A stretch of 64,000 nucleotides of DNA from Candidatus Woesearchaeota archaeon (lineage in GTDB: Archaea > Nanobdellota > Nanobdellia > CAYMVK01 > CAYYFB01): the NCBI GenBank assembly GCA_964471255.1, contig CAYYFB010000001.1, positions 110,798 to 174,797 on the forward strand, in the 5' to 3' direction. Within the stretch, counting starts at the first letter, position 1. Every line of letters begins with the position of its first letter. The notes below the pieces were generated by a model. It did not search any database and was not told the DNA's origin. It saw only the letters and a program-made list of their open reading frames with translations. A program made the position numbers and the translations under genes. Positions 17,026 to 55,856 of the stretch are shown here, piece by piece.

Positions 17026-17127
17026 GGGGCCGTAGCCTAGTGGTAGGGCGTCGGGCTCCAGAAGAATCTGGAGCGCTGATAAGCTGAAGAAACCCGAAGG
17101 TCCGGGGTTCGAATCCCCGCGGCCCCA
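17026..17127 (+). tRNA. tRNA-Trp(CCA) with ~30-nt intron in the anticodon loop
   Basis: Acceptor GGGGCCG/CGGCCCC. Anticodon stem TCGGG/CCCGA. Loop CUCCAG[intron AAGAAUCUGGAGCGCUGAUAAGCUGAAGAA]A. T-arm GGTTCGAATCC. Confidence 0.85.
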
Positions 17128-17191
17128 TTACTACATATAAGTAGTTAAAAATGTTTAACTCATCTCATATATTCCTATTCTATTTTCTTAT

Positions 17192-18841
17192 ATGGCGGAA
17201 AGGAGAGTTGCACATACAATGCCTGTACTTATCCTTCCTGAAGGGTATACAAGAACGGTAGGAAGAGATGCGCAGAGAATGAATATTTTAGCGGCAAAAA
17301 TTGTAGCAGAGGCGGTAAGAACAACTTTAGGACCAAAAGGGATGGACAAAATGCTAGTAGACTCATTGGGCGATGTGGTGATAACCAATGATGGAGCGAC
17401 GATTTTAGATGAGATGGAAATAGAACATCCGGCAGCAAAGATGATGGTAGAAATTGCAAAGACACAAGAAAAAGAAGTAGGAGATGGGACAACAACCGCG
17501 GTGGTCCTTGCCGGTGAACTCCTCAAGAATGCAGAAGACCTTTTAGAAAAAGATGTACATCCAGCAGTGATTTGCAAAGGATATAGACTTGCTATGGAGG
17601 AAGCACTTAGGATATTAGATGAGATAGGCAAGCCGATAGACCCCAACAATAAAGATGTCCTAGTCGACATAGCTATGACAGTGATGCGGGGGAAGGCTAC
17701 CCCTCAAGAGACTGAACTTAAAGAGCTAGCAAAAATTGCTGTAGATGCTATATTTACAGTAAAAGAGGAAAGAAATGGAAAAATATATGTTGATATAGAC
17801 AATATTAAGCTTGAAAAAAGAGTTGGTGGTTCGGTAGGTGATACAGAATTAATAAAGGGTGTGGTATTGGATAAAGAAAGAGTCCACCCGGGCATGCCCA
17901 CATTAGTAAAAAATGCTAAGATAGCTCTCCTCAATTGCCCTTTAGAAGTAAAAGAACCCGAAGTAGATGCAAGAATACAGATAACCTCCCCAGAACAAAT
18001 GGAAGCATTTCTGGAGCAGGAAGAAAAGATGATAAAAAAGATGGTAGAAAAGCTAAAAGAAGTAGGAGCGAACGTAGTTATTTGTCAAAAAGGAATTGAT
18101 GAGATAGCACAGCATTATTTAGCTAAAGCAGGAATATTTGCCGTCAGAAGGGTTAAGAAATCTGATATGGAAAAATTAGCCAGAGCAACTGGAGGGCGTA
18201 TAGTTACTTCAGTAGAAGATCTTTCCCCAGAAGATCTAGGTTATGCTGAGATTGTAGAAGAAAGAAAAATTGCTGGAGAATCCATGACATTTGTAAGAGG
18301 TTGTAGGAATCCAAAGTCGGTCACAATTCTAATAAGAGGGGGATCTGATCACGTGGTTGATGAAGCAGAAAGAGCTATGGAAGATGTCCTAGGGGCCCTT
18401 GCTAGTTTATTAAAAGATCCAAAAATCGTCGGTGGTGGTGGAGCCGTGGAAGTTGAGTTGGCAAGGAGATTAGAAAAATTTGCAGATAAGTTCCCAGGTA
18501 GAGAACAGCTAGCTATAAAAATGTTCGCAAAATCTTTAGAGACAATTCCTATGGCAATAGCTGAGAATGCCGGTTTAGATCCTATAGATTTTCTGGCAGA
18601 ATTAAAGGCAAGACATGAAAGAGGGGAGATATGGGCAGGGATAGATGTTTTTGAAGAAAAAGTAGTTGATGCCATAGAAAACAAAATAATAGAATCTATC
18701 AGCGTGAAAAAACAAGCTATAAAAAGCGCCACAGAAATGGCGATAATGATACTTAGAATAGATGACGTAATAGCAGCTGGGAAATTAAAGAAAGAAGAAG
18801 AGAAACCGGGTCTAGGAGAAGAAGAAACAGAAACCGACTAA
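17192..18841 (+). CDS. ths: thermosome subunit (group II chaperonin)
   Basis: 549 aa. '[11 protein letters not shown]', 'ITNDGATIL', '[16 protein letters not shown]', 'VGGGGAVE', and a C-terminal charged tail. Confidence 0.95.
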
Positions 18842-18927
18842 TTGTTGCTTTTCTCTTTCTTAGTTCTTATTTTGTTGTTTAAACTCCTTTCTCGATTTTA
18901 AAAGAGCAAACTTAAATAGACTTTTAC

Positions 18928-21900
18928 TTGTCTAAAAAAGGGATTATGATGGCTATCTTCCAGGGGGTATGTCCAAATTGCCATGGTGAAATCAGTGATG
19001 GAAGGCTCAAAATTAGAAACCCTTGTTGTAGATGTCTTTCTAAAGAGATTATTAAAAAAGATTTGATAGAGAATATAAAGGAAATTTATTTTGCCTTGAA
19101 AAAAGAGGGAAAGGTACTAGATTATGAAAAGATTTATAAAGAATTCATTTTGTTGGATGAGTTTGAGAGGTTCTTCGAAAGCTGTGTTAATAATAAGTTA
19201 TGGAGTGTTCAGAGAAACTGGGCATTTAGAGTATTAAGGGGAGAAAGTTTTGCTATAGTTTCCCCCACAGGAACTGGAAAAACAACTTTAGCAGCCGCTT
19301 TATCTGTCTTCTTAGCAAGAAAGTTTGAAAAAACAATCTATTTTATAGTACCCACAACCACTCTGGTTAGACAGGTCGCTTCTTTAATAGAAAAATTTGG
19401 GTTATTTCCTCTCTATTATTACTCTGGAATGAGGAAAAAAGAAAAAGACGCTTTTCAGGAGAGGCTCCTTAAAAATTCTTTCGAAATTCTTATTACCACT
19501 TCACAATTTCTTTCTAGAAACTTCGATATTCTAAAAGGAATTCATTTCGATATCATCTTTGTAGATGACATAGATGCTCTTCTGAGAACTTCCAAAAACA
19601 TTGATAGAGTGTTGCAACTTATTGGCTTCTCGCAAGAGGATATTTCTTTAGCCATGGAAGTTATTAAGAGTAAAAGAAAGCTCCTTAGAGCAAAAAAAGG
19701 AGAAATTCTTAATATTCTTAAGGAAATAAAAGAAATAAAAAGAAAATTGGAAAAAAAAGAGAAGAAAGGGCAAATAATCCTAATGTCAGCTACAGCAAGG
19801 CCGAGGGGCACCCGCCCAAAACTTTTTAGGGAACTGCTTAACTTCCAAATTGGAGAAAGTGCTACTGGAATGAGAAATATTGTAGATGCTTACTTTGTAA
19901 CGGAGGATTTAGATAAAGCTCTCCTTGAAGTTATTAAAAAGTTAGGTAATGGGGGCCTTATTTTTGTAGCAAGAGACTTTGGAGAAGAGAAATGTAAACA
20001 ATTAAAAACATATCTTAACCAACACGGGATAAAGGCAGATACTCTCCTTGCGGGAGAAAAACTAGATAAAATTGACCTTTTCAGAGAAGGAGAAATAGAT
20101 ATTTTAATAGGCTCTGCCCACTTTTACGGAGTCCTAGTGCGAGGGTTAGATCTCCCAGAGAGGGTTAGATACACTGTTTTTTATGAAATCCCACGTTTTA
20201 AGCTTAAAATAGAAGAAGCACTACTTAATCCTTTCTTTTTCTTGTATTTTACTGATGAGATCCTAAAGATCAAAGAGGAGAAGGAACTAAGAGAAATAGC
20301 CTCTAATATTGAAAAATTCCTCACCAGCGTTTCGCCCAATGCTATAAGAATGCTTGTTAGAGAGTTGAAGTCAAATATTCCGGAAAAGTTTACGGAGATC
20401 ATAAAAAAGATAAAAAGGGGAAAAGAAATTATTCAAAATCTTCTTTCAGATCCCGAAGTAAAGAAAGGACTTAAGGAAGCAAAATCGTTTATTTTTTCTC
20501 CCCCAGTAGTTGTTTTTCCTGATGTTAATACCTATATCCAAGCCTCAGGAAGGTGCTCTCGCCTCTATGCTGGGGGGCTGACTAAGGGCCTAAGCATCAT
20601 CCTGACTACTAATGAAAAAAACATCAAACTTCTAGAGAGAAGACTTAGATGGAAGTACGATATAATTTTCAGAAAACTGAAAGAACTTAAGCTCTCTGAA
20701 ATCCTGGAAGAGATAGACAAAGATAGGAAAAAAGTGAAGATGATAAAAGAAGGAAAATTGAAAAGTGAAAGAAAAGATCCTGTGAAAACTATTCTCTTAG
20801 TTGTTGAGTCTCCAACAAAAGCGAGAACCATTGCCAATTTCTTTGGCAAACCTTGTGTCCGCATCAGAAATGGATTGAGAATATATGAAACATCGACCGG
20901 GGACATGGTGATCAATATAGTAGCCACCAAAGGCCATCTCTTTGACCTTATTACTAATCAATATTTCCACGGAGTAAAAAGAATTAACAATCTTTGGATA
21001 CCTATCTACGCAACTATAAGAACTTGTAAAAAATGCGGAGAACAATTTGTAGGCCTTTTGAAATGTCCTAGATGCGGTTCGGAAACCTACTCAGATGCAT
21101 GGGAAAGGATAAAGACGATTCAAGAAATAGCAAAAGAGGTTGATCTTGTGTTAATTGGGACCGATGCTGATGCTGAAGGAGAAAAAATAGGATGGGATAT
21201 TGCCTGCGCTATCGCTCCATTCTCTAGAGAAATAAAAAGGGTAGAATTTCATGAGATAACCGAGCGGGCCATACTTTCAGCACTGAGAAATCCGAGGGAT
21301 ATAAATTTAAAATTAGTTGAAGCCCAAATTGTTAGAAGAATAGAAGATAGGTGGATAGGATTTGAATTAAGCGAAGAGGTGCAAAGGGAAAAAGTAGGAT
21401 ACTCCGCGGGAAGGGTCCAAACCCCCGTTTTAAAATGGATTATTGAGAGATACAAAGAAAGGAAAAATAATATGCGGTTTTATCTTGATATAGAAATACC
21501 TATTGGATTAAAGATAGAATTTGAGCTTCCATCTAAGATAAAAGATAAGGAAGATGCGGAGTCTTTTGCTGACCAAATAGAGGAAATAGAAGTCGAAAAA
21601 ATAAAGGAATGGGAAGAAATCTTGAACCCTCTTCCACCATTCGAAACAAATACATTAATTAGTGAGGCATCAAGAAGTTTAGGATGGGATTCAAAAACCA
21701 CAATGAGAATCGCTCAAGATTTGTTTGAACTTGGTTTTATAACTTACCATAGAACAGATTCCATACGAGTCGCTCCAGAAGGGATAGGAATCGCAAAATA
21801 CTTTATCAAGGATAAGTTTGGAGAAACGTACTTTAAAGGGAGATCCTGGGGAACTGGAGGAGCACATGAATGCATACGGCCCACTCGTGGATTAGAACCT

Positions 21901-25045: not shown

Positions 25046-25047
25046 TT

Positions 25048-26832: not shown

Positions 26833-26833
26833 T

Positions 26834-28761: not shown

Positions 28762-28825
28762 GCTGACCCCGGCAAGATATATTTCCTACCTTTACTTCTT
28801 TTCTCTCCTCCTATTTTCAATCTAT

Positions 28826-30234: not shown

Positions 30235-30236
30235 TG

Positions 30237-30397: not shown

Positions 30398-31579
30398 ATG
30401 GGAATAGAATCTAAGGAAAGCATATTTAAAAAGATAGGAATACTTATTCCCCCTTATCTAAAGATAGGGGGAAAAATTAAGGCCGCTCCAGAAGATTTCA
30501 TAGTTAGGGAAGTTATAAATGGAAAAATACTGAACGAAAAAGCGAATCTTTTTTCTTTATTTCTAAATAAATTATTGCTTTCGTGCTCCAGAAAAAAGAG
30601 ATTTCTTTGGTTTACTCTCGTAAAAAGAGATATCGGAACTTTGGAGGTAGCTGGGCTGCTCCAGAAAAGAGGGATAAAAAAGGTTTGGTTTTGTGGCCTT
30701 AAAGACAAAAAGGCCGTTGTTGCTCAGAAACTTTGTATTTATTCAAAAGATAAAAATAAGCTTTTCAAAATAAAATCAAAAAAATTCTTTTTTAAAGACT
30801 TTGAATATAAGGATAAAAGAGTCCGGCTTGGAAGTAATGACGGAAATTATTTTATTATAAGGATAAGGGATGTTTCTGCCCTGGAGCAGGCAGATAAAAT
30901 AGATCAAATTAAAGATAGAATTCCGAATTTCTTTGGACCCCAAAGGTTTGGATCGATAAAATTGAACAACCATTTGATTGGGAAAGCCATAATTAAAAGG
31001 GAGTGGGAAAGGGCTTGTTTTGAAATTTTAAGATCTGGAGTGCGAGGGATAGATGAAAAACTAAGAAAAAAATGGGGGGACTGGAGCGGGATAAGAGAAA
31101 TTATTCCCAAGTTTAGAAGAGGCGCTCCAGAATGGTTATTAATAAATAATCTTTGTTCCGGCTCCAGTTTTGAAGATGCTGTGCTCCAGCTTCCTAAAGA
31201 ATTCTTAAGACTATGGATAGATGCCTATCAGTCCTATCTCTTTAATTTAACCTTATCTGAGATTATAAAAAGGAATATTGAAGCAAAAAGGGTACCTTTA
31301 GTTGCTTACAATTTAAAATTGGAAAAATGGGGAGAAATAGGGAAAATAATAAGTCAGATTATGAAAAGGGAATCCCTTAGTCTCTTGGATTTAAAGATAA
31401 GGAAAAAATTAAGACCAAAGGTAAGGTTAAGAAAGGTTTATATGGGAATAGAAGATCTAAAAATAAAAAGAGAAAAAAGGGACCTAATTTTGGAATTCTT
31501 TCTGGAGCGGGGCTCATATGCTACTGTTTTTTTATATTTCGTTGGAGTCCCTCCAGAGCATTTAGCCTATAACTTTTAA
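30398..31579 (+). CDS. truD: tRNA pseudouridine synthase TruD/Pus7 family
   Basis: 'AAPEDFIVREV' N-terminal motif. Catalytic 'GLKDKKAV'. 'NFFGPQRFG' motif. Confidence 0.7.
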   Translation: MGIESKESIFKKIGILIPPYLKIGGKIKAAPEDFIVREVINGKILNEKANLFSLFLNKLLLSCSRKKRFLWFTLVKRDIGTLEVAGLLQKRGIKKVWFCGLKDKKAVVAQKLCIYSKDKNKLFKIKSKKFFFKDFEYKDKRVRLGSNDGNYFIIRIRDVSALEQADKIDQIKDRIPNFFGPQRFGSIKLNNHLIGKAIIKREWERACFEILRSGVRGIDEKLRKKWGDWSGIREIIPKFRRGAPEWLLINNLCSGSSFEDAVLQLPKEFLRLWIDAYQSYLFNLTLSEIIKRNIEAKRVPLVAYNLKLEKWGEIGKIISQIMKRESLSLLDLKIRKKLRPKVRLRKVYMGIEDLKIKREKRDLILEFFLERGSYATVFLYFVGVPPEHLAYNF

Positions 31580-34072: not shown

Positions 34073-35122
34073 ATGAAAATAGGAATGATGTCAGCTTGGA
34101 ATACAGATTCTGGAGTATCAATCCATGCTGAGCTTATTGGAAGGGAATGGATTAAAGATGGGCATACCCTTTTCGTGTTTTCTCACATAAAAGAGGATTT
34201 CCACGGAGATGGGTTTACTAGAAAGAAAGATGAAGAATTTGTAATTAGGTGTTTTGGTAAACCTCATGTAACAAACTTCTTTGATCCAAGACCAATTTTA
34301 AAGAACAAATATGATGTTTTTATTGTTCAAGACCTGCGCCAGATCCCTTATTTGAAGCTTGCCCATATACTCCCCATTTTAAAAAGAAAGTCAAAAATAA
34401 CTGCCCATATTGTCCATGAGAATCATTTACCAGAAGAAAGTTGGTTTTACATGCATGATTGGGACTTAGTAATCTATTTTGATAAAAGACAAGCATTTCT
34501 TAAAGAAATCTATGAAGACAAGGCTCATTATATCCCCTTTCCTTGTGCACCTTTGCGAAATATAGACAAAGAAGAGGCTAGAGAAGAATTAAAACTACCA
34601 AAAGAGAAAAAGATATTCCTAATTTTTGCCCAGAGAGGATATAAACCCTATTTTCCGGAAATACCTGACAAGATAAAGAAAGATCTTATCTTTATCTTGT
34701 TAATAAGGAAAGGAATGCTAGGTGAACTGGTCGAAAGTTATTCTAAATCTCCTCATATACTTATTAGAGAAGAGGAAACTCTAAGTTGGGAAAGATTAGA
34801 TTTGTATGCTGGAGCAAGCGATGGAATTGTATTGCATAAATTTAAAAGTAGAGGCTACGCGCTAATTTCAACAACAGCAGCCCAACTAATTGGAGCACAA
34901 CGACCAATCTTAGTTCCAAAACACTCTGACTTCTTCAATTTCTTTAAGGGAGGCGTCCTAGAGTATGGAGATTATACTGAATTGGGAATTTGGCTATCAA
35001 AAATAGTGGAAGATGATGAAGAAGTTAGGCAAACATTAAGAAGAGCAAGAAAAATTGTAGAGAAAAATTCCTCTGAAAAAATAGCCAAAGAATATATAAA
35101 CCTGTTTGAAAAGTTTCTATAA
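34073..35122 (+). CDS. putative glycosyltransferase (GT4-like)
   Basis: 349 aa. N-terminal 'KIGMMSAWNTDSGVSIHAE'. C-terminal '..GYALISTTAAQLIGAQRPILVP' resembles the GT-B E..G..EAma.G.Pv region. Confidence 0.35.
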   Translation: MKIGMMSAWNTDSGVSIHAELIGREWIKDGHTLFVFSHIKEDFHGDGFTRKKDEEFVIRCFGKPHVTNFFDPRPILKNKYDVFIVQDLRQIPYLKLAHILPILKRKSKITAHIVHENHLPEESWFYMHDWDLVIYFDKRQAFLKEIYEDKAHYIPFPCAPLRNIDKEEAREELKLPKEKKIFLIFAQRGYKPYFPEIPDKIKKDLIFILLIRKGMLGELVESYSKSPHILIREEETLSWERLDLYAGASDGIVLHKFKSRGYALISTTAAQLIGAQRPILVPKHSDFFNFFKGGVLEYGDYTELGIWLSKIVEDDEEVRQTLRRARKIVEKNSSEKIAKEYINLFEKFL

Positions 35123-35173
35123 TAAATGGCTATAGAGAAGCGGCAAAAATTTTCTTTGGGTTAGCAGTTTTCC

Positions 35174-35245
35174 TGCGGCCGCCGGGATTCGAACCCGGGA
35201 CCTCTGGCTTGGGAGGCCAGCGTCCTACCACTAGACTACGGCCGC
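35174..35245 (-). tRNA. tRNA-Gly(CCC)
   Basis: Reverse complement reads GCGGCCG UA GUCU AGUGGUAGGAC G CUGGC CUCCCAA GCCAG .. CCCGGGTTCGAATCCCGG CGGCCGC. Confidence 0.85.
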
Positions 35246-36015
35246 ATAAATACTTCTTGTATAAACCCAAGATTTAGATCTAATAGATAAATTAAAAAGG
35301 CCAAAAGCAATGAAGGTATAAAAGGCATCCCCCATTTTATTTTGATTTTGTTTTTTATTCCAAAACTTTTAATTTTTTTCACCTCTAAGAGAGTTAAGCT
35401 CCTCCCTGGATTCTTAAAGACTATTTTATTACCTATTTTTATATCTTCTACAAGTATGTCCCCCTCTTGCAATTCCTCTGGAAGAATTTCTCTAACTTCT
35501 ACCAGCTTATCTTTATAAGGAAAGATTGAAAAATAGAGGGAAATCAAGAAAAGCAAAAAAGACAGCCTAATTGAATGAGTTAAGAAGGTTATAAGAGAAA
35601 AAAAGAGTAGAATAAAAGGAAAAAGATATAACGGTAACTTAATCCCCTTTTTAAGAAGAAGAAAAAAAGCATATGCCAAACAACAAACTGATAGGGAGAA
35701 AAAAAGAGATATACAAAACTCTGGAGCCGCTCCAGTAATGAAAAAAATAGACGATGATATTACTAAATCCCCATCTGCTATTACTCCCTTTAAAAAGAGA
35801 AGAGAAAGAAAAGAGAGGATTAGTATCGTTCTAATTATCTCCTGGAAGCCTTTTAATGAAATTAAAAAGATGGCGCCAGAATATAGAAGGAAAACATAGG
35901 CAAGATAGGAATTTATACTCCTGTCTCTCAGATCTGTATACGAAAAGTAGGAAAGAAAAAGCAAAGGAAGAATCTTCTCTAATAAAATACTAGCAGAAGG
36001 AAAACTAAGGAACAT
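35236..36015 (-). CDS. class-III signal (prepilin/preflagellin) peptidase, A24 family, with C-terminal soluble extension
   Basis: First catalytic Asp in 'SYTDLRDRSI' after TM1. Second in 'GVIADGDLV'. ~6 TM helices. Last 3 codons plus the stop overlap the tRNA-Gly 5' end. Confidence 0.55.
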   Translation of the reverse strand: MFLSFPSASILLEKILPLLFLSYFSYTDLRDRSINSYLAYVFLLYSGAIFLISLKGFQEIIRTILILSFLSLLFLKGVIADGDLVISSSIFFITGAAPEFCISLFFSLSVCCLAYAFFLLLKKGIKLPLYLFPFILLFFSLITFLTHSIRLSFLLFLISLYFSIFPYKDKLVEVREILPEELQEGDILVEDIKIGNKIVFKNPGRSLTLLEVKKIKSFGIKNKIKIKWGMPFIPSLLLAFLIYLLDLNLGFIQEVFMRP

Positions 36016-36236
36016 AGAAAACTCAACCCGACTATTATCCAGAGAAATCTTGGATCATTAGCAAAACCAAAGGGAAAAGGCCCTATAAAGCCTCCAATGC
36101 CATAATATATTTTAGATTGCATTTTTCCCCGCTCCAGAAGAGGCCAAAGAATTAGTGTTAAAATACCTGTTACAATAAGAAGCGCTCCTATAAGAATGAA
36201 GAAAGAAGCTATTCTAATAATACTCTCCATATTCAA
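35979..36236 (-). CDS. small hypothetical membrane protein
   Basis: 85 aa, two TM helices. Confidence 0.3.
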   Translation of the reverse strand: MNMESIIRIASFFILIGALLIVTGILTLILWPLLERGKMQSKIYYGIGGFIGPFPFGFANDPRFLWIIVGLSFLCSLVFLLLVFY

Positions 36237-36792: not shown

Positions 36793-36851
36793 AAAGTAAA
36801 AAGTTCTGCCACTAATATAGTCTTAATCTAGACCCTTTACCAAGGATATTT

Positions 36852-37502: not shown

Positions 37503-38672
37503 TTAGCAGACACTCACCTTGGAAGGAGGAATTTTAAATTAAGAGAGCGGGAAGAAGATTTTTATAAGGCTTTTGATAACGCTATTGAAAAAATTATAAA
37601 AGAAAAACCAGATTTTGTAATTCACTCAGGAGATTTGTTTGAAAAAGCTTCACCACCCATCTCAAGCATACTGGTAGCCATGGAGGGATTGAAAAAACTT
37701 AAAGAAAATAATATCCCTCTGTATATAATTCCAGGAAATCATGATTTGTTTCTAAACGAAAGTTTCATTTCGGTTCTTCATACTATTGGTCTATTGATAA
37801 ATCTTACCGCTCCAGAATACTTCCTCAAAGTCGGTGAAAGGTATATAGTTAAAGGAGTTCAGGAAGGAAACTGTGCTATTTTAGGAGTACCTGGAAGGAG
37901 AAGCAGAATAAAAGAATTGTATAATAATCTGATAATAAAGGCCGAAGGAAAAATAAAAATTTTTGTCTTTCATCATATTCTAAAAGAGGTAAATGCGGTT
38001 TCTGGAGATATTCCACTAGAATGGTTACCAAAAGGCATGGATTATTATGCCGGCGGTCATTGGCATTTCCCTTATGAAAATTACAAGTATAGGGTGTTTT
38101 ATCCAGGTTCTTTAGAATATTATGATGTCACTGAAATGAGAGAACCTCACCAAAAAGGTTTTTTCTCCGTTTCCCTTAGTGAAGATCATCTTAAAGTAAA
38201 ATTCATCCCAGTAAAAACTAGGGGAATAAAATATAAAAGAATAATCGTAGATGGCCATTCTCCCGAAGAAATAGAGAAAATTTGCTTAGATTTCTTTAAA
38301 TCTTTGGAAGGATACCAAAATATAGCCATCTTAGAGTTGGAGGGGAGATTAGGAAAAGGATCTAAACGAAACATTAACAAAAGAAAAATTATAGAGTTTG
38401 GTCTCTCTAGAGGATTTCTTCATGTACACATAAATGACTCAAAACTAAAGGACCCCCTACCTTCTAGGAAAATCAGAAAGTTCTCACTACGACCTTTAGA
38501 TGAGCTGGAGCGGGAGTATCTAAAAGAGAGATTTACTGAGGAGGAACTAAAGCTTGCTGAAGAAATATTAAAAACTCTGGGGCAAGAAGTAGGAGGTTTG
38601 GAATTAGAATTCCTAAAAAGAAAACTCATAAAAAGAATAGAAGAAACTTTTTTGTCCAGCGGGCAGAGATAA
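37482..38672 (+). CDS. Mre11/SbcD-like calcineurin-type phosphoesterase (DNA repair nuclease)
   Basis: 'FVHLADTHLG', 'IHSGDLFE', 'IPGNHD', 'FHH', 'GHWH' motifs in Mre11 order. No adjacent Rad50. Confidence 0.6.
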   Translation: MEIKFVHLADTHLGRRNFKLREREEDFYKAFDNAIEKIIKEKPDFVIHSGDLFEKASPPISSILVAMEGLKKLKENNIPLYIIPGNHDLFLNESFISVLHTIGLLINLTAPEYFLKVGERYIVKGVQEGNCAILGVPGRRSRIKELYNNLIIKAEGKIKIFVFHHILKEVNAVSGDIPLEWLPKGMDYYAGGHWHFPYENYKYRVFYPGSLEYYDVTEMREPHQKGFFSVSLSEDHLKVKFIPVKTRGIKYKRIIVDGHSPEEIEKICLDFFKSLEGYQNIAILELEGRLGKGSKRNINKRKIIEFGLSRGFLHVHINDSKLKDPLPSRKIRKFSLRPLDELEREYLKERFTEEELKLAEEILKTLGQEVGGLELEFLKRKLIKRIEETFLSSGQR

Positions 38673-38935: not shown

Positions 38936-38996
38936 TTTCTGGACCTTTTGGGTAATATAAGCCTTAGGATAAATTATATAAAAAAGATGCTTCTCA

Positions 38997-39023: not shown

Positions 39024-41852
39024 ATGAGTGTTGCCCTTAAGAGTAAAATAACCAGAGTTGAAGGAAGAAGAAAGTTTTACCTATTACAGGGCCCCCCTTA
39101 TGTAACAGCTAATCTGCATGTAGGTAATGCAAGAAATTACATATACCAAGATATCTTTGCAAGATATCTTATCTTACGCGGTTACGATCTCTTCTTTATT
39201 CCAGGACTAGACTGCCATGGACTACCTATTGAAGTAAAAGTGGAAAGTATGTTGAAATTTAGGTCAAAGAAAGATATTCTAGAATTTGGAGTAGAAAAGT
39301 TTGTTGAAAAATGCAAGGAATGGGCGCTCCAGAATGGAAAAAAAATTATAGAAATTTGTAGAGAGGGGGGATTACTGCATGGCCTTTTTAATGAAAACGA
39401 GTGGTACTGGACTTTGAAAGATGATTACATCGAGAAAGTATGGTGGGCTTTCAAAAAAATTTGGGAAAAGGGATTAGTTTATAAAGGAGCAAGAGTTTAT
39501 CTTTGGTGCCCCCGTTGTGAAACGGTACTCTCTTCTGGATATGAAACCTCTGAATATAAAGATTTATCTGACTGGTCGATTTATGTGAAATTCCCTGTAA
39601 AGGAGGAAAAAAACACCTACCTTTTAGTCTGGACAACAACTCCCTGGACTTTACCAGCAAATGTCGCTGTAGCTGTTCACCCAGAGGAAAAATATGTGAA
39701 AGTTAGATGTGGGGAGGAACATTACGTCATTGCTGAGAAAAGGCTCTGTATTCTAGAAAAATTAGGAAAAAAATATGAAATAGTAGAAAAATTTAAAGGA
39801 GAAGAACTTAAAGACTTAGAATACCTTCCTGTAATAGATACAGAGGAACAAAGAAAAATAAACCACAGAATTATCCTTTCAATACCTCTTCTGAAGGGGT
39901 GGAGAGGGAGGAAAATTGAGGAAAAGAAGAAAGAATTAGAAGTGGAGGAAATTTATGAGCATTTGGTAAATATTGAGGAAGGAACAGGGCTTGTTCATAT
40001 AGCAACAGCACATGGTGAAGAGGACTTTAAGATTGGGGAGTATTATAAGCTTCCCATTCTAAATGTTGTTGACGTAGATGGAAAAATGGTAAATGCTGGG
40101 AAATATAATGGCCTCTATTATAGAGAAGCTAATGAGAGAATTATAGAGGACCTTGAAAATAAAAATTTCATCTTTTACAAAGAAAGAATAGTTCATAGAT
40201 ATCCAATTTGTTGGAGATGTAAGACACCACTAATTTTTAGACTATCTGAACAATGGTTTGTTGCTATAGAAAAAATCAAAGACAAATTAGTAAAATATGC
40301 GGGAAGAATAAAATTTTACCCCGAATACCGAAAAGAACAATTTATAAATTGGCTGCTTGATGCAAAAGATTGGGTTATTTCACGACAGAGATTTTGGGGA
40401 ATACCTATTCCCATCTGGATTTGCAATAAGTGTGGAAAAGCTATAGCAATAGGATCCAAAGAAGAATTAGAAAAACTTTCTGGCACAAAAGTTAAAGAGT
40501 TGCATATTCCTTGGGTAAACGTTAAAATAAAGTGTGATTGCGGAGGAACAATGGAAAGAATACCTGATGTATTTGATGTTTGGATGGACTCAGCCTGTGC
40601 TCCATTTGCGGCGGTACCTGCTGATGTATGGGAAAAAATAAAGTTTGTTGACTGGATTTGTGAGGCTCAGGACCAAATTAGAGGCTGGTTTTATTCAATG
40701 CACGTAGTAGGTTCCATAGTATTTGACAGAAATGTCTACGAGAGTGTCTTAGTAGGCGGTTGGGTATTAGACTGGGCAGGAAGAAAAATGAGCAAATCCT
40801 TAGGAAATGTGATCTATTGGAAAGATGCTATAAATAAAATTGGAAAAGAGGCCATAAGATTCTATGTAGCTTATTCTTCCCCTCCATCCCAGCAAATGAA
40901 TTTCAACCTAGAAGAAGGGAAAAAGGTATTCACACAATTTTCAAATGTTTATAGAAATGTAGTTAGATTCTATGTTGATTACTCCAGAAGGGAGTCTTCA
41001 TTAAGAACAGAAAAGCGTCTATTAGAAGACTCCATCATAGAGAACCTTTTTGAGAAACTGAAAAAGGAAATAACAGAATATCTAGAAAATTGTGAATTTG
41101 ATAAATACGCTAGGAGATTGAGGGATTTTATACTCGAAGATTTGAGCAGATTTTATATCAAGGTAATTAGAGAGAGAATAAAGAAAGGAGACATATCGCC
41201 CCTGAAAATTTTGGGAAATATTCTAAAAGAGCTGGTAATTTTAACTTATCCTCTTTGTCCAGAGCTAAGTGATGAATTATCATCCAAGCTCGAAATTGGA
41301 AACATAATTGAAAAAGAATGGCCTTCCTATAAGAGGTTCGATGGTTCTATAATAGAAGCATATGAAAAAATAAAAGAAATTTCTTCAGCCATTCTATCTG
41401 CAAGGGAAAAACTAGGAATACGCTGGAGATGGCCACTAAAAGAAGTGAGTTTTGATGAGAAGATACAAAAAGAAATAGGAGAACAAGGAATGGAATTAAT
41501 ATGCAGATTCTGTAATATTGAAAAATTTTCAATAGGAGTTAATGATGGGTATTTAAGGGTAGAAACATCATTCGGGTGTGTATATGTTTCTAAAGAGTTT
41601 AGTAAAGAACTAGCCATTATATCTGAGTTCTGTAGAGGGGTTCAATCCCTTAGAAAAGAGCTATCTCTGAAGGTATTTGAAAAAGCTAATCTAATAGTAG
41701 AATGTGATGATGAATTTTATTCTTTAATTAAGAAATACGACACATACATAAAGGAAAGATGCAATCTCCAAGAAATTAAGAGAGGCTCAGGGAAAAAAAG
41801 GCTTAAATTGCCCTTAATAGAGAAGGAAATAGGAATATGGATAGAGAAATAA
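39024..41852 (+). CDS. ileS: isoleucyl-tRNA synthetase
   Basis: 'GLDCHGLPIE', 'WTTTPWTLPAN', editing-domain region, Zn knuckles 'WCPRCETVL' and 'CWRCKTPL', 'KMSKSLGNV'. The HIGH motif reads HVGN. Confidence 0.85.
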   Translation: MSVALKSKITRVEGRRKFYLLQGPPYVTANLHVGNARNYIYQDIFARYLILRGYDLFFIPGLDCHGLPIEVKVESMLKFRSKKDILEFGVEKFVEKCKEWALQNGKKIIEICREGGLLHGLFNENEWYWTLKDDYIEKVWWAFKKIWEKGLVYKGARVYLWCPRCETVLSSGYETSEYKDLSDWSIYVKFPVKEEKNTYLLVWTTTPWTLPANVAVAVHPEEKYVKVRCGEEHYVIAEKRLCILEKLGKKYEIVEKFKGEELKDLEYLPVIDTEEQRKINHRIILSIPLLKGWRGRKIEEKKKELEVEEIYEHLVNIEEGTGLVHIATAHGEEDFKIGEYYKLPILNVVDVDGKMVNAGKYNGLYYREANERIIEDLENKNFIFYKERIVHRYPICWRCKTPLIFRLSEQWFVAIEKIKDKLVKYAGRIKFYPEYRKEQFINWLLDAKDWVISRQRFWGIPIPIWICNKCGKAIAIGSKEELEKLSGTKVKELHIPWVNVKIKCDCGGTMERIPDVFDVWMDSACAPFAAVPADVWEKIKFVDWICEAQDQIRGWFYSMHVVGSIVFDRNVYESVLVGGWVLDWAGRKMSKSLGNVIYWKDAINKIGKEAIRFYVAYSSPPSQQMNFNLEEGKKVFTQFSNVYRNVVRFYVDYSRRESSLRTEKRLLEDSIIENLFEKLKKEITEYLENCEFDKYARRLRDFILEDLSRFYIKVIRERIKKGDISPLKILGNILKELVILTYPLCPELSDELSSKLEIGNIIEKEWPSYKRFDGSIIEAYEKIKEISSAILSAREKLGIRWRWPLKEVSFDEKIQKEIGEQGMELICRFCNIEKFSIGVNDGYLRVETSFGCVYVSKEFSKELAIISEFCRGVQSLRKELSLKVFEKANLIVECDDEFYSLIKKYDTYIKERCNLQEIKRGSGKKRLKLPLIEKEIGIWIEK

Positions 41853-50617: not shown

Positions 50618-51463
50618 TTACAAGCTTTTTTTCTCTATTTTTAGATCTACGCATACTCTTACCTTAGAAGGAGAAATATCTCCACATTTTTTTACGTTTA
50701 TAACTTCTAGAGAAATAGAATAGATTTCGGAAAGGTAAGTAACAAAACTTTTTACTTCTTCCTCATAGTCTTCTTTTTTAACAAACTTATAAACGTGAGC
50801 AAACGCCTTTTCTTTCGAGGCAAGAACGACACTTTCGAAAAGCTTTTCTGGAGCGCTGGGATAATCAAGAATACATCTATCAGCAATGTTCTTTAAATTA
50901 AGCTCTTTAATAACTTCTCTACAATCCCCTAAAAAAGGAAAGATGACCTCCTGAAGTTTATTTAACTTTATATTTTCAACCAGATATCTAAAAGCCAGAG
51001 GATTTTTATCAATAGCATATATTCTCTTGGGTTTTGCGTGTTTTGCTATCACAAGAGAAAAAGATCCAATTCCTGCACAAAGATCTATAATTATTTCCCC
51101 AGGAGCAACCTTTCTTGCAATCCTAAGTCTTTCCTGGGATAGTCTAGGAGAGAAGTATACTTTTTTCACATTAAGTTTCATTTTTACTCCAGACTCTTTG
51201 TGGATTGTTTCATCAATCTCTTCCCCAGCAATTAATTCATAAGATCTTAGTCTAAATTCCCCTTTGACTTCACTGGCTCTTTTATAGACGCATTTCACAT
51301 TCCTATGGATCTTGAGAATAGCTTTTCCTATTTCCTCTTTATATTCTTCTAACTCTTCTGGTATTTCTACTATTGCTATCTCCCCAATAATATCAAAGCT
51401 TGTTGGAATATATCTTGTTTTTTCTCTAGGTATTACATTTTTTAGAACATCTTTTATTCTCAT
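50618..51463 (-). CDS. Trm5/Taw2 (Met-10+)-family SAM-dependent tRNA methyltransferase
   Basis: 'IIDLCAGIGSFSLVIAKHA', 'YAIDKNPLAFRYLVENIKLN', 'ILDYPSAPEKL'. Confidence 0.6.
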   Translation of the reverse strand: MRIKDVLKNVIPREKTRYIPTSFDIIGEIAIVEIPEELEEYKEEIGKAILKIHRNVKCVYKRASEVKGEFRLRSYELIAGEEIDETIHKESGVKMKLNVKKVYFSPRLSQERLRIARKVAPGEIIIDLCAGIGSFSLVIAKHAKPKRIYAIDKNPLAFRYLVENIKLNKLQEVIFPFLGDCREVIKELNLKNIADRCILDYPSAPEKLFESVVLASKEKAFAHVYKFVKKEDYEEEVKSFVTYLSEIYSISLEVINVKKCGDISPSKVRVCVDLKIEKKSL

Positions 51464-52039
51464 TCACTCTTTTTCTTTTAAATACCGTTTAAGATAAAGA
51501 TATCCAAAAATCCCAATGATCATGGCCACTCCAGCTGAACATCCCCAGACTAGGATTTCAACAATCCTAATTAGTATAGTAGCTTCAGGAATTCCTATTT
51601 CTTTGAGAATTATTCCTCCCAAGAAGAGGTAAACAACAGCCGAGATAGGGAGATAAAGGATATGCCCATAGGGTACCTGTTTAATGCTCTCCCCTGCTCG
51701 TCTGAGGATAATAATCCCTAAATATAAAACGAAAAGGATTCTAAGCAGGTTTGGAAAGAATGCTAGGACTGAAATTAGGAAATTTGACAAAACTGAAAGA
51801 TTAAGTAATTTGAACCCCTCAGAAAAGAGGAATATCGCTATAGATAAAGAAATGATTGTCGATAAAATGTATCTAAGCTTTACTCCAGCAATATCCTTTG
51901 GCAGGGAATGTTTTTCTAGAAATTCATCAACCTTTTTTCTTCTCCAGATTAAGGAAAAAACGTCTCCTGCTACTTTTCCTGCTGAAATTCCTAACAGAAA
52001 GAGGAGCATTGCATAAAGGATATTTTCTAACATATTCAA
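51464..52039 (-). CDS. hypothetical membrane protein
   Basis: 191 aa, 5-6 TM helices. Confidence 0.35.
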   Translation of the reverse strand: MNMLENILYAMLLFLLGISAGKVAGDVFSLIWRRKKVDEFLEKHSLPKDIAGVKLRYILSTIISLSIAIFLFSEGFKLLNLSVLSNFLISVLAFFPNLLRILFVLYLGIIILRRAGESIKQVPYGHILYLPISAVVYLFLGGIILKEIGIPEATILIRIVEILVWGCSAGVAMIIGIFGYLYLKRYLKEKE

Positions 52040-52138: not shown

Positions 52139-52330
52139 GAAGAAATGCCCCTTTGGCTGTTTTTATAACAACATTATTTTATGATGCCATTTGCTGAGCA
52201 GATTAAGGACGGAATCGGAATGACGTTGTTTTGCAACAAGATAAAGTCCTTGAAGTGCAAGCCTTCAAGCCTATTCTGACATTATTGAGAATTTTATAAA
52301 AAACTTAAGTGCCGGGAATTAGTTTTTTCT

Positions 52331-52534
52331 ATGCAAGTAACCATTTCTATCTCCGAACTAAAAAAGATAATAAGGGAAGTGATAAGGGAAGAGCTTGAAA
52401 GATTTAAAGTAGAATTGATTCCAGAAGAAGAGCCAGAACCTGAAGATCTTGAGGCTTTAAAGATAGCCACAGAACAATACAAAGAAGGAAAGTATGTGAC
52501 ATGGGAAGAATTGGAGAAAGAACTTTCGAAATAA
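52331..52534 (+). CDS. putative antitoxin of RelE-type toxin-antitoxin pair
   Basis: 67 aa, acidic. 3' end overlaps the start of the RelE-like frame. Confidence 0.45.
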   Translation: MQVTISISELKKIIREVIREELERFKVELIPEEEPEPEDLEALKIATEQYKEGKYVTWEELEKELSK

Positions 52535-52794
52535 TTATTCCAAAGGGCGTTAAGAGGAAAATTATTAAGCTTCCAGAAGAGTATAGAAATCCTTTAGGGG
52601 AAATATTTAGAACCTTAAGGGAGAATCCTATACCTACCAGCAAATAGGATGTTAAGAAGTTAAAGGGCCTTAAAAATTGCTTTAGGATTAGAAAAGGTAA
52701 GATGAGAATTGTTTATAAAGTTTTGGAAAAAGAAAGGAAAATTCTAATTGCTAGGGTTGGTATGAGGGAGAAAGTATACAAAAAGTTATTATAA
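52501..52794 (+). pseudogene. RelE/ParE-family toxin gene interrupted by in-frame TAG (52645-52647)
   Basis: Translates as MGRIGERTFEIIIPKGVKRKIIKLPEEYRNPLGEIFRTLRENPIPTSK*DVKKLKGLKNCFRIRKGKMRIVYKVLEKERKILIARVGMREKVYKKLL. The C-terminal half is the classic RelE core. Confidence 0.5.
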
Positions 52795-52961
52795 TATTCA
52801 AGTGAACTAGAATTATAAAGGATTTTCTCTTTAATTTTCCTTACTCAATAGAATAGAAATTTTCTATACCCCAGATGAGCTAAATAGGCCTCCTGATAAA
52901 GAAAGACAGTTGTTTTTCTACACTACATTCTGACCATTCATCTGGTAACCAGGAAATATTA

Positions 52962-52990
52962 CTCCTAAGACCTGACGAACAGGAGGTCCC
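52962..52990 (+). repeat. degenerate direct copy of tRNA-Val 3' half (att-like remnant)
   Basis: 'ctgacgaacaggaggtccc-agttcgaatc' versus tRNA-Val 'ttgacgagcgggaggtccccggttcgaatc'. ~28/32 identity, same orientation, ~830 nt downstream of the gene. Confidence 0.5.
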
Positions 52991-53437
52991 AGTTCGAATC
53001 TAAATGGGAATTATTCTTAATTTTAATGTTCTCAATTCCAGAGAAACCAAATTATTTAGACATTTTATTGCTAACTGTTAATTAGGTCATAAAACGGTGG
53101 CCTTCCTAATTACAAAAATATTGAGAGAAATCAATCCTCAGTAGTGAAGAGAAAGGTCCAAATTATTGATTACTGTTAACACACTAGAGCAAAAAAGAAT
53201 CTTAAGTATATCTGAGGAATTTAATCTATTTTCTAGAGCGCTCCAGAAAAATTCTCAAACTTGTTTATCTTTATTAAAAAAGATTTAGCATTAATTTTCC
53301 CAATTCCCCAAATAGTCTTGATTGCTTACTTATATTTCTCCCTTTGCTTCCTTCTCAGTCTTTTTCTCTCCCTTATTCTCTTTTTGATAGTTTTCCATCT
53401 ACATCTAAACTTATTGACCGTCTTTTTCCACCTTCGG

Positions 53438-54175
53438 CTACTCCTTTTCAACTATCCACCTCCATCCTATTGCTGATATATAAAGAGCTAGCCTAAGGGT
53501 TATAAAGTTTACGTCGAAATCCAGATTTATCTCAGTAATGTCCATTGAGAGTGGCTTTGTTCTGCTTAGAGCATCAATAAGAAGCTTTGGATTTAGCCCA
53601 AATGGTTCCCTAAAATAGGTTCCTGGAGCGAAAGCTGGGTCTAAAACATCAATATCTATGCTTAAATAGAAATCTTTTCTTGGAATAAAGGAACTTATAT
53701 CATCAGAACTCTCTATTTCATTGCATAGTAAAAAGTTTATCCCTTTCTCTTTGATGAAATTCATTTCGTGTGGTGCAAAATTCCTTATTCCCACTAAATA
53801 TACCTTCTCTGGATTTACTAATCTTTCCTCAATAAGAAGCCTTAACCAATCTTCATTAGTGGGGAATTTTGTAGAGAACTCTAAATCTGGATGAGCGTCA
53901 AAAATTACTAGAGGTTTTCCTTTAAAGTTCTGGTAGAGAAAAAAAGAAACAGAATGATCCCCTCCAATAGCTACAAATGGTTTTTCTAAATTCAAAAGCT
54001 TAGAATAGAATTCTCTTATATTTTCTCCTTCTTCTTTTGATATCACCCTAATCTTTGTGCTAATTAAATCAATAAAATAGATCTTCTCTAATTCTTTTTT
54101 TAATTTTCCAGATATTTTATATCCTTTCCTATATCTTAGGTTTCCAATTCCTTCATCTATTACTATTAAGTGCAT
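53438..54175 (-). CDS. arginase/agmatinase-family ureohydrolase
   Basis: 'GGDHSVSF', 'FDAHPD', 'SIDIDVLDPAFAPGT'. 245 aa, short. Confidence 0.7.
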   Translation of the reverse strand: MHLIVIDEGIGNLRYRKGYKISGKLKKELEKIYFIDLISTKIRVISKEEGENIREFYSKLLNLEKPFVAIGGDHSVSFFLYQNFKGKPLVIFDAHPDLEFSTKFPTNEDWLRLLIEERLVNPEKVYLVGIRNFAPHEMNFIKEKGINFLLCNEIESSDDISSFIPRKDFYLSIDIDVLDPAFAPGTYFREPFGLNPKLLIDALSRTKPLSMDITEINLDFDVNFITLRLALYISAIGWRWIVEKE

Positions 54176-54299
54176 GCAAGGAGTTGGTTAGAAGAAATCT
54201 AATGAATTATGTAGCTACCAGTGGGTGAATCAGAAAATCCTGGTTAGAATTCTGGAGCGGCATGGAAGTATCTAAATCTATAGATATGGATTTCCTTTT

Positions 54300-54539
54300 A
54301 TGGCAAAGAGAAAGACTGTAATACCAATGGCTGCTGTTGAGAGACTTATAAGGAATGCAGCAAAGAAATATGGAATAGTAAGAGTTTCTGGAAAGGCAGT
54401 AGCAAAGACAGTAGATACTTTAGAAACTCTGGTAAAAAGATTGGCTGAAGAGGCTTCCAGGCTTGCTGCTCACGCTGGAAGAGTAACAGTAACAAAAGAA
54501 GATATTGACATGGCTAAGGGAAGTATAAGGACCCTATAG
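54300..54539 (+). CDS. archaeal histone (HMf-like fold) with short N-terminal basic tail
   Basis: 'IPMAAVERLIRNA..VRVSGKAVAKTVDTLETLVKRLAEEASRLAAHAGRVTVTKEDIDMA' histone fold. 'MAKRKTV' tail. Confidence 0.75.
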   Translation: MAKRKTVIPMAAVERLIRNAAKKYGIVRVSGKAVAKTVDTLETLVKRLAEEASRLAAHAGRVTVTKEDIDMAKGSIRTL

Positions 54540-54740
54540 CTTTTTTGCTTATTTATTTTATTATATTTGTGATGAGACCTTCCCAGTCTGAAGTCTGATG
54601 ATTCGAGCTACCTCACTGATCTAAACCCCTTCAATAGAAAGCTTGTAGAGTTTCTGGTAAATTTTCTAAAAAGACATGTAAGAATAAATCAGAGGTATGT
54701 TCCTTTTGTTTTAATTTGAGTATTAATTACTTTCTAGACT

Positions 54741-55070
54741 TTACTGATATTCCATCCAAGTATATCCACATTTAACACATTTGAATATCCTTGTAGCCGG
54801 CTCATCAGCAGCTCTTGTTTGCTCTAGAGTGAAATATGCTTTATTATATCCACATTTGGGACACTGGACTTCAGTTATGGGGAGCATTTCATTTTCAAAT
54901 GATTCTAGTTCAACAATTCCTCTCCTTTTCTTTGTATGCTCCACAGTAATAAGAGGGTTCCCTTCTTTTTCATAAGTTTCTCCACATTTAGAACAAACCA
55001 ACTTATCTCCCTTAGGAACAAGAACTCCTCCACACTTCTTGCAGAATAACATAGAGAAAGTCTCCCTCAA
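54741..55070 (-). CDS. tfs: transcription factor S (TFS; RpoM/TFIIS-like)
   Basis: N-terminal Zn ribbon CKKCG..CSKCG. C-terminal ribbon 'CPKCG..QTRAADEPATRIFKCVKCG'. Probable start at M7 (55052). Confidence 0.7.
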   Translation of the reverse strand: MRETFSMLFCKKCGGVLVPKGDKLVCSKCGETYEKEGNPLITVEHTKKRRGIVELESFENEMLPITEVQCPKCGYNKAYFTLEQTRAADEPATRIFKCVKCGYTWMEYQ

Positions 55071-55088
55071 AACTCCTTTATAAATATT

Positions 55089-55856
55089 ATGGAAAAGTTT
55101 AAAAGAGAAAATCGAGAAAAAAACTTTTCAATTAAACTCCTTATTAATAAAGAAAATAAAAAGTATTTCTGGAGCGGCGGAGATTTGCATTTGAATGAAG
55201 GGATTATAAAAGAGGAAAAAATAAAAAGGGCCGCTCCAGGCGACAAGATTTATACTCATCTGGGAAAGGAGTTCTATGTCATTAAGCCTAATTTCATTGA
55301 TTTCTTTGATAAATTGAAAAGAAGAGCCCAAGTTATTTTACCCAAGGATGCTGTCCTAATGATTGCCTATGCTGGGGTTAACCCAGGAGATACAGTAGTA
55401 GAGGGAGGGACTGGCTCGGGATGGCTAACCTTATGGCTTGCAAGAGCTGTTGGGGAAGAAGGCAGGGTAATTTCTTATGATATTAATAAAGAAAATATAG
55501 AAATAGCAAGAGAAAATCTAAAGCTTCTTGGATTAGAAAAAAGAGTGGAATTTGTAATAGGGGATATCACAAAAGAGGGATTTCCGGAATGTAATTCTGT
55601 TTTTCTTGACATTCCAAATAGCTATGAGGTAATTAAATTCTGGAGCAAGGTTGCTCCAGGGGGCTTTATGGTTTTCTACTGCCCTCAGCTTACGCAAGTT
55701 TTGGAAGTAGTAAAGGAAGCTAGGAAAGTAGATAGATTAATACTTGATAAATGCATAGAGGTAACCGAAAGACCTTGGATAATTAAAGATAAAATATTAA
55801 GACCAAAACAATGGCTTGAACACACGGCATTCCTTTTGTTTTTAAGGAGAGTTTAG
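55089..55856 (+). CDS. trmI: tRNA (m1A57/58) methyltransferase TrmI/Gcd14 family
   Basis: 'VVEGGTGSGWLTLWLARAVG..GRVISYDI', 'FVIGDI', 'VFLDIPN'. Confidence 0.65.
   Translation: MEKFKRENREKNFSIKLLINKENKKYFWSGGDLHLNEGIIKEEKIKRAAPGDKIYTHLGKEFYVIKPNFIDFFDKLKRRAQVILPKDAVLMIAYAGVNPGDTVVEGGTGSGWLTLWLARAVGEEGRVISYDINKENIEIARENLKLLGLEKRVEFVIGDITKEGFPECNSVFLDIPNSYEVIKFWSKVAPGGFMVFYCPQLTQVLEVVKEARKVDRLILDKCIEVTERPWIIKDKILRPKQWLEHTAFLLFLRRV

Follow-up and report, generated by a model that had tools for sequence, protein, structure and literature searches.

Genome-wide hyper-abundant words are rare. The few known, namely the DNA uptake sequence (DUS), the uptake signal sequence (USS), Chi and the highly iterated palindrome HIP1, have each brought a mechanism to light, be it of DNA uptake, of recombination or of chromosome biology. 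The DUS of Neisseriaceae (GCCGTCTGAA, also found in a 12-mer form) and the USS of Pasteurellaceae (AAGTGCGGT core) are short asymmetric words of 9-12 bp, over-represented tens to hundreds-fold, that occur equally on both strands and in coding as well as non-coding DNA, use few preferred reading frames and leave an imprint on the proteome; they are lineage-specific, have many one-off variants and form hairpins at gene ends as inverted pairs. HIP1 (GCGATCGC) of cyanobacteria is a GC-rich, CpG-containing word enriched 15-300 fold inside and between genes; its 8 bp form a perfect palindrome, and it is linked to cognate methyltransferases (PMC4390886, PMC5861425). Its function is debated between methylation/repair, chromosome structure and transformation, while a peptide or RNA function does not explain it (PMC4390886, PMC5861425). 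Chi and the FtsK-orienting polar sequences (KOPS) are over-represented words of the 8-bp class that occur once per few kb, strongly on one strand of each replichore, and are read by bacterial enzymes (RecBCD/AddAB and FtsK, respectively). Repetitive extragenic palindromes and bacterial interspersed mosaic elements (REP/BIME), and miniature inverted-repeat transposable elements (MITE), have many copies, some palindromic at gene ends, and are extragenic units of 20-150 bp with conserved bodies. We analyzed a 64,000-nt stretch of archaeal DNA (contig CAYYFB010000001.1, positions 110,798 to 174,797; hereafter the window) and found that the word TTCTGGAGCG(G) is ~30-100 times more frequent than expected by chance, on both strands and also inside genes.

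This word resembles DUS and USS in the features listed above, with hairpins from inverted pairs at two places, a number too small for statistics. It differs from them in that the host is an archaeon, its density is about half of theirs (0.45 per kb, or ~1 copy per 2.2 kb), its sites are clustered rather than evenly spread, and no dialect of it occurs in the distant relatives available. With HIP1 it shares the GC-rich, CpG-containing composition, a fold enrichment in the same range and the location inside and between genes, but it is an asymmetric word of 10-11 bp, is not known to have a methyltransferase and forms a palindrome only where two inverted copies overlap, which is the case at two intergenic places. 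It is like Chi and KOPS in length class and spacing but is unskewed, and like REP/BIME and MITE in being multicopy and sometimes palindromic at gene ends, but it spans only 11 bp and lies in open reading frames (ORFs) in 85% of cases. It is a DNA-level, strand-symmetric, lineage-specific, hyper-abundant word whose kind is known but which stands outside every known family; it has neither the HIP palindrome, nor the skew of Chi, nor the element body of REP and MITE.

An exact search of both strands of the whole window for the 8-mer CTGGAGCG/CGCTCCAG identified 20 sites, 10 per strand (Table 1). Dinucleotide-preserving shuffles gave an expectation of 0.45 sites (maximum 3 in 100 shuffles), and an order-3 Markov model gave 0.95 (z=19.5), which ranked CTGGAGCG first among the 8-mers of the window. 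By the same model the 10-mer TTCTGGAGCG occurred 12 times against 0.15 expected and the longest form, TTCTGGAGCGG, 7 times against 0.05. A preliminary description of this DNA had listed ~19 occurrences and noted that many extend to a longer form. All 19 positions were real sites within ≤10 nt, and the site at 30484(-) had been overlooked; the enrichment was correctly recognized and is stronger than described there, and the GC content is 36.0% rather than ~33%. To account for coding constraints, we used two codon-aware nulls of 500 runs each, one in which protein sequences were fixed and synonymous codons were redrawn from window usage, and one in which codons were permuted within genes. The 17 sites in ORFs compared with 0.83 expected by synonymous resampling and 0.55 by codon permutation (maximum 4 in 500 runs each). 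A lack of enrichment of the 8-mer against an order-3 Markov or codon-aware null had been named in advance as grounds for abandoning the word; the ratios found were 20 to 0.95 and 17 to 0.83.

The window from 2075 to 64000 is identical to ENA contig k141_209598, on which 8.1 kb past the window end carried two more TTCTGGAGCGA sites. We also scanned a metagenome collection for a perfect palindrome, TTCTGGAGCGCTCCAGAA, modelled on the near-palindrome at 53231-53248. The scan returned 23 contigs, one of which, the low-GC Ga0190367_1000345, had ten further sites in 12 kb. The other 22 had ≤2 further sites each, and three low-GC ones that we checked were dissimilar to the genome, so these look like chance matches. 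The enolase of Ga0190367_1000345 and the TruD of the window share one 257.7-kb contig, indicating that both belong to the same genome; on the ENA contig, Ga0190367_1000345 lies ~10 kb beyond the end of the window, and one more step added 9.3 kb. Outside the window, 38.7 kb of this genome contained 26 more sites, and the window finding is thereby replicated within the same genome. Over the whole 102,682 nt read, 46 sites were found against 1.55 expected (z=35.8, order-3 Markov), and TTCTGGAGCG occurred 26 times against 0.24. An assembly artefact was rejected because three assemblies were identical over their overlaps, though they are probably from the same sample. Viral contigs scanned for the palindrome or for inverted pairs gave 0 and 3 chance matches, respectively, none of them motif-dense. 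For binning contigs of this lineage the word is a highly specific marker: the 18-mer query alone found the right contig among 241 million records.

Within the window, 16-17 sites lie in ORFs (8 sense, 9 antisense), two are intergenic and one is in a tRNA-Trp intron; over the whole 102.7 kb, 39 of 46 (85%) are in intact ORFs and 7 are non-coding. Sense and antisense coding sites are about equally frequent in the window and in the extra sequence. Seven of the nine antisense coding sites read xxC-GCT-CCA-GAA/GGx (A-P-E or A-P-G), while the sense sites split 3/3/2 among x-G-A (xCT-GGA-GCG), L-E-R (CTG-GAG-CGG) and W-S-G. The extra sequence is likewise dominated by the three favoured frames (A-P-E/G, L-E-R and x-G-A). 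The arginine of L-E-R is encoded by CGG, which accounts for only 30 of 921 arginine codons, and rare GCG codons also occur. The statement in the preliminary description that sites fall in different codon phases was right in that all frames are used, but their use is uneven. Since at least six frame and orientation classes are used and a null that holds the proteins fixed predicts 0.83 sites where 17 are observed, a protein motif or a codon-usage effect is essentially excluded. The word is imposed at the DNA level, as had been proposed, and both intergenic sites cited in support of that proposal are real (at 53239 and 54252).

The TruD gene (30398-31579), with four exact sites and five CpG-variant sites, illustrates how the word enters proteins. 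In an alignment with 25 homologues, three of the four exact sites occurred without any indel, and the fourth, at 31123, adjoined a 2-residue insertion in a divergent stretch. Part of each word fell on conserved positions, namely P-E of PEDF, which is invariant, a W, and L..G. At variable columns lineage-specific replacements were seen (EK/KY to AA, KE to SG, and K to R). At 30484(-), for example, the word runs across the invariant P-E, and A-A stands in place of the two variable residues before it. As judged from this alignment, the word is written into proteins by substitution, at positions that tolerate it; the alignment also agrees with the DNA-level origin of the signal. A 30-100 fold enrichment together with rewritten proteins points to a strong sequence-specific DNA process in an uncultured thermophilic lineage.

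Alignment of all sites gave the consensus T-T-C-T-G-G-A-G-C-G-(G>C>A), in which the last position is never T. Information content was confined to these 11 positions and was near zero in the 30 bases on either side, indicating a bare word rather than the core of a longer repeat; a repeat element with conserved flanks was ruled out by this profile. Among the one-base neighbours of the 8-mer, two were clearly enriched, CTGGAGTG (8 vs 1.7 expected) and CTGGAGCA (14 vs 3.1), both of them CpG-transition products, and the remaining neighbours of CTGGAGCG stayed within ~2.7-fold of expectation. Mismatches in one-off versions of the 11-mer fell mainly at positions 2, 10 and 11. Together these observations define a hard core of CTGGAG plus CG, and indicate that copies decay mainly through C-to-T change at the CpG. 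The genome is strongly depleted in CpG (observed/expected 0.46), and the word accounts for 3% of all its CpGs. The CpG deficit is not matched by an excess of TG or CA (0.88 and 0.86), while GG/CC and AG/CT are in excess, in the window and in the extra sequence.

The near-variants named in the preliminary description exist, namely TGCTCCAG at 30584, 30657, 38712 and 55652 and a shared stretch containing CTGGAGTG, but the membership of CTGGAGTGGCC in the family is not clear. CTGGAGTGGCC was set aside, being a coding stretch common to two weakly similar membrane proteins. The 19-nt identical stretch TTCAGCTGGAGTGGCCATG (coding S-A-G-V-A-M; 33558-33576 and 51521-51539) contains CTGGAGTG and is shared by two membrane proteins with hardly any further similarity (BLASTP E=0.006), which could reflect convergence or a local gene conversion. 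Two more over-represented words, GGGCATGTAA and GTACGGAT, are found repeatedly inside large surface-protein ORFs; they seem to be coding repeats rather than members of the family, and GGTTCGAATCC is the tRNA T-arm.

The sites are clustered, with a variance/mean of 1.75-2.3 in 1-3 kb bins (P≤0.002 vs uniform placement). Dense patches in the window include TruD, 35.7-39.3 kb and 50.8-55.2 kb, and in the extra sequence ten sites fall in 2.9 kb around the genes for a class II tRNA synthetase, an S51 peptidase and CysRS. The two surface-protein regions contain 3 sites where 12.5 are expected (P=0.0015). The sparseness noted in the preliminary description thus holds nominally, but it is not specific to these regions, as the 11.4 kb of ordinary housekeeping genes at 39.4-50.8 kb contain zero sites. 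Nor do the data show that the surface-protein regions are compositionally foreign, as had been suggested, because the GC of the first region is an ordinary 35.8% and that of the second is somewhat higher at 39.9%. In addition, a 141-residue ORF at L110 18469-18894 (same genome, ~92.9 kb in window-equivalent coordinates) carries five copies in 426 bp, which read P-G-A twice and A-P-E three times. This ORF is without a family match and its start overlaps the stop of an RsmF-like gene; in L119, a distant relative that is syntenic here, the slot is occupied by an unrelated EamA gene.

Strands are mixed in every 10-kb bin without any switch point, and all 46 sites split into 20 plus and 26 minus. 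Overlapping inverted dimers occur at two intergenic places and have 22-24 bp in common (ATTTTCTGGAGCGCTCCAGAAAAT). The one at 53227-53250 has one mismatch relative to a perfect 24-bp palindrome elsewhere in the genome, which in the extra sequence follows the S51 peptidase stop codon at a distance of 7 nt. Both dimers form 9-10 bp terminator-like hairpins flanked by U and A runs (n=2), with modest hairpin z-scores (-1 to -2.9). A 7+1+7 palindrome, CTGGAGC-C-GCTCCAG, is found at 35721-35735, and convergent pairs inside TruD (31081/31123, 42 nt) and the GCD14-like gene (55169/55232, 63 nt) can also pair. The spacing of paired copies varies (overlapping, 27, 34, 42 and 63 nt). The site in the tRNA-Trp intron is of another nature. 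The tRNA (17026-17127; Rfam match of 64 bits, none from ARAGORN) has a ~30-nt intron in which UCUGGAGC pairs with GCUCCAGA (CUCCAGA) of the anticodon loop in the predicted fold. Eight bases of the site are dictated by this pairing, so the site is explained by RNA structure. It is real, as first reported, but we do not count it as independent evidence for a DNA-level signal.

The window encodes reverse gyrase, an archaeal RNase P RNA, a thermosome, a histone and the PolD small subunit, indicating that the host is a thermophilic archaeon. The best non-self match of its TruD had 40% identity, and the first named match was a Nanoarchaeota metagenome-assembled genome (MAG). Enolase and ProRS matched MAGs at 51-53% identity, followed by a mix of Thermoproteota and DPANN names. 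With best matches split between Nanoarchaeota/DPANN and Thermoproteota, a DPANN placement is tentative. No close relative was present in the databases searched, the nearest sharing 37-53% protein identity; a scan of genome contigs with TruD alone gave no matches, and a second contig scan with the TruD alignment gave only distant TruD loci. The nearest relatives, L113 (GCA_054036315.1) and L119 (GCA_964622145.1, syntenic around RsmF-ProRS), had 0 sites in 19.2 kb, where ~9 would be expected at the density of the present genome, and those nearest by TruD (L082-L084) had 0 sites in 43.8 kb. In the comparison with related genomes that had been suggested in the preliminary description, which reached relatives of 37-53% protein identity, the word therefore appeared lineage-specific. 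None of these relatives had a comparable word of its own. The word was also not enriched in 80 more distant TruD loci, where top-word z-scores were mostly 6-10, a yardstick for how exceptional the values of 19.5 and 35.8 are. One further word, AGCTTGGA, occurred 10 times in the 19.2 kb of L113 and L119 (~1.0 expected), usually as R-AGCTTGGA-R. Its count is within the range of top words in the control loci, so it may mean nothing, or it could be a weak counterpart word in a sister lineage.

By analogy with DUS and USS, we tentatively read the word as a self-DNA tag spread by biased uptake and recombination, to which we give a probability of about 0.3. A putative surface or pilus-associated receptor would prefer word-bearing DNA, so that fragments from conspecifics would enter and recombine more frequently. 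Under this bias, new copies of the word arising by mutation would spread, a form of molecular drive, as far as protein function allows, while existing copies would be steadily eroded by CpG transitions and intergenic inverted pairs may double as hairpins at gene ends. Uptake sequences inside terminator hairpins have been described (PMC1852404). Features in favour of an uptake tag are the hyper-abundance and DNA-level origin of the word, its closely spaced convergent inverted pairs and the two hairpin-forming dimers, the length of 10-11 bp, the asymmetry, the strand symmetry and the absence of conserved flanks, as well as preferred frames that encode easy peptides, the proteome imprint, the lineage specificity and the common one-off variants, concentrated at edge positions and the CpG. 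The window also has type IV filament genes, including those for a PilB-like ATPase, two PilC-like proteins and proteins with the pilin-like N-termini MKGISPIV... and MRGVSPVVATILL..., and RadA and Mre11/HerA-like genes are present. A bolder version, that this is the first DNA uptake or self-recognition sequence in Archaea, with a thermophilic and possibly symbiotic (DPANN-like) host that tags its own DNA with TTCTGGAGCG(G) and preferentially imports and recombines tagged DNA through type IV filament machinery, is somewhat less likely still. If selective uptake were true, species-specific transformation would extend to archaea, and the word would offer a handle for genetics in an uncultivated group.

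Several observations weigh against an uptake tag. USS and DUS are spread rather evenly over genomes, whereas the present sites are significantly clustered, with long housekeeping stretches that have none, and their density is about half. ComEC, DprA and ComEA homologues were absent among the annotated genes of the 103 kb read, which is only part of the genome, and in archaea of this sort type IV filaments may have no use beyond attachment. The relatives have no dialect of the word, the nearest of them being very distant (51-53% identity in enolase and ProRS). We found neither an archaeal uptake sequence in the literature nor a report of this word or an archaeal equivalent of it. Finally, every sequence feature listed in favour would also arise under another DNA-level drive or selection. 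In our weighing the uptake tag comes first, binding sites of a chromosomal protein second and a repair drive third, the rest being left to minor or unknown mechanisms.

The strongest competitor, possible though itself on the unlikely side, is that an abundant chromosomal protein, with sequence specificity and a role in nucleoid organisation, segregation or domain structure, binds the word. Selection would then keep the clusters, and the palindromes would be dimer sites. Such a protein could account for the significant clustering, for the two overlapping inverted dimers that share 22-24 bp and for the 7+1+7 palindrome, and HIP1 offers a precedent, being a hyper-abundant word that is under selection and for which a role in chromosome structure has been proposed (PMC5861425). 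On the other hand, most sites are single, asymmetric and intragenic, the spacing of paired copies varies and no candidate binding protein was identified. Moreover, ~450 sites per Mb, paid for in genes with amino acid changes and rare codons, would be unusual for known nucleoid-protein sites.

A methylation-linked biased repair is less likely again. A methyltransferase would mark the CG in CTGGAGCG, and a mismatch-specific repair enzyme would convert near-cognate sites to the word. This resembles very-short-patch repair, which depletes the T-containing neighbours of its sites in E. coli. A model of this type was proposed by Elhai for HIP sequences (PMC4390886). The word does hold a CpG although the genome is CpG-depleted, the CpG-transition neighbours CTGGAGTG and CTGGAGCA are the most enriched, suggesting special mutation dynamics at this CpG, and genes for an HhH-GPD glycosylase and a dU endonuclease lie in the vicinity. 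The model, however, predicts depletion of exactly those T-containing neighbours that are enriched here, and TG and CA are not in excess genome-wide. Among the annotated genes of the 103 kb there was no DNA methyltransferase, only RNA/tRNA methyltransferase families, and an 11-bp asymmetric specificity exceeds typical methyltransferase sites. If the word were a binding or repair signal, it would point to a new sequence-specific protein.

A role at the RNA level, in which the word is a building block of terminator or regulatory hairpins and the coding copies are by-products, appears improbable. The two intergenic dimers do fold into 10-bp hairpins with U runs, one of them just after a stop codon, and the two convergent pairs can pair, but most sites are single in genes and as frequent in sense as in antisense, where an RNA signal would follow the direction of transcription, and the hairpin z-scores are modest. 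We gave very little credence to a polar recombination or translocation signal of the Chi or KOPS type, read one way by a repair nuclease or translocase: the density of one per 2-3 kb, the 8-bp-class length and the terminal AGCGG, the Chi sequence of Bacillus subtilis, resemble Chi, but the 20:26 split rejects a 75% skew (P=0.005), overlapping inverted dimers would be meaningless in a polar signal and no RecBCD/AddAB homologue was seen. The weakest candidate, footprints or ends of a small MITE- or REP-like mobile element or repeated insertion, has the many, partly palindromic copies in its favour and fails on the absence of conservation beyond 11 bp, on the 39 of 46 sites in intact ORFs and three different frames, and on the three exact TruD sites that align to homologues without insertion. 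Chi-like polarity and mobile-element footprints, both raised in the preliminary description, are essentially excluded.

Table 1. Exact sites of the word in the window, with the reading of each in its gene context
Form	Position	Strand	Context
taCTGGAGCGg	1869..1876	+	ORF 251-2158, reads T-G-A
full TTCTGGAGCGG	9477..9484	+	ORF 9233-10324, reads S-G-A
CTGGAGCGG	10756..10763	-	DUF2341 surface-protein ORF 10306-13740, antisense, reads R-S-R
tRNA-Trp intron site	17068..17075	+	tRNA 17026-17127; set aside as independent member
TTCTGGAGCGa	21771..21778	-	reverse gyrase gene 18928-22524, antisense, reads A-P-E
full TTCTGGAGCGG	30484..30491	-	TruD 30398-31579, reads A-A-P-E
CTGGAGCGG	31081..31088	+	TruD, reads D-W-S-G; convergent inverted pair with 31123, 42 nt off
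TTCTGGAGCGc	31123..31130	-	TruD, reads G-A-P-E
full TTCTGGAGCGG	31502..31509	+	TruD, reads L-E-R with rare CGG; homologues L-x-K
taCTGGAGCGG	35728..35735	-	membrane ORF 35236-35015..36015 (possible prepilin peptidase, weak match); part of the palindrome at 35721-35735
full TTCTGGAGCGG	36130..36137	-	small membrane ORF 35979-36236, reads L-E-R
full TTCTGGAGCGG	37808..37815	-	Mre11-like metallophosphoesterase gene 37482-38672, antisense, reads A-P-E
CTGGAGCGG	38505..38512	+	Mre11-like metallophosphoesterase gene 37482-38672, reads L-E-R
TTCTGGAGCGc	39325..39332	-	near start of class I aminoacyl-tRNA synthetase gene 39024-41852, reads A-L-Q
TTCTGGAGCGc	50848..50855	+	TYW2/Trm5-like methyltransferase gene 50618-51463 (minus strand), reads A-P-E
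inverted dimer ATTTTCTaGAGCGCTCCAGAAAAA	53227..53250	.	intergenic; contains exact site 53239-53246(-)
tcCTGGAGCGa	53623..53630	+	arginase-family gene 53438-54175 (minus strand), reads A-P-G
full TTCTGGAGCGG	54252..54259	+	intergenic, ~40 nt upstream of histone gene 54300-54539
full TTCTGGAGCGG	55169..55176	+	GCD14-like tRNA methyltransferase gene 55089-55856, reads F-W-S-G; convergent with 55232, 63 nt
gcCTGGAGCGG	55232..55239	-	GCD14-like tRNA methyltransferase gene 55089-55856, reads A-A-P-G

The type IV filament gene set of the window is distributed over 2158-13740, 23263-30234 and 35236-37286. Pilin-like proteins are encoded at 23724-24167 and 36852-37286. Beside the PilB-like ATPase and the two PilC-like proteins, this large set includes a possible prepilin peptidase with a weak Arc_PepC_II match, two proteins with classic archaeal pilin N-termini, and a row of ~8 small proteins that have N-terminal hydrophobic helices and are without a Pfam match, followed by a 1144-residue DUF2341 protein. 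At the other end, 55899-64000 (and on to ~65297) is occupied by three consecutive giant ORFs of 845, 1213 and 1039 residues with almost no Pfam match. They share internal repeats, for example LDTYGHVT, encoded by GGGCATGTAA, have a GC of 39.9%, lack the word and are probably surface proteins.

We also noted an ORF-poor stretch at 52140-53440, just after tRNA-Val, which contains a small antitoxin-like ORF (52331-52534), a RelE-like toxin frame (~52530-52800) broken by an in-frame stop, and a ~20-nt copy of the tRNA-Val 3' half (GGAGGTCCCAGTTCGAATCT) at ~52981-53000. The stretch resembles what is left of an element that had inserted at the tRNA gene. The 5S rRNA gene (30235-30354) is solitary and distant from any rRNA operon. 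Two spurious ORFs (38420-38731 and 38719-38955) overlap the archaeal RNase P RNA (38659-38926), and the CpG-variant CTGGAGCA at 38712 lies inside this RNA.

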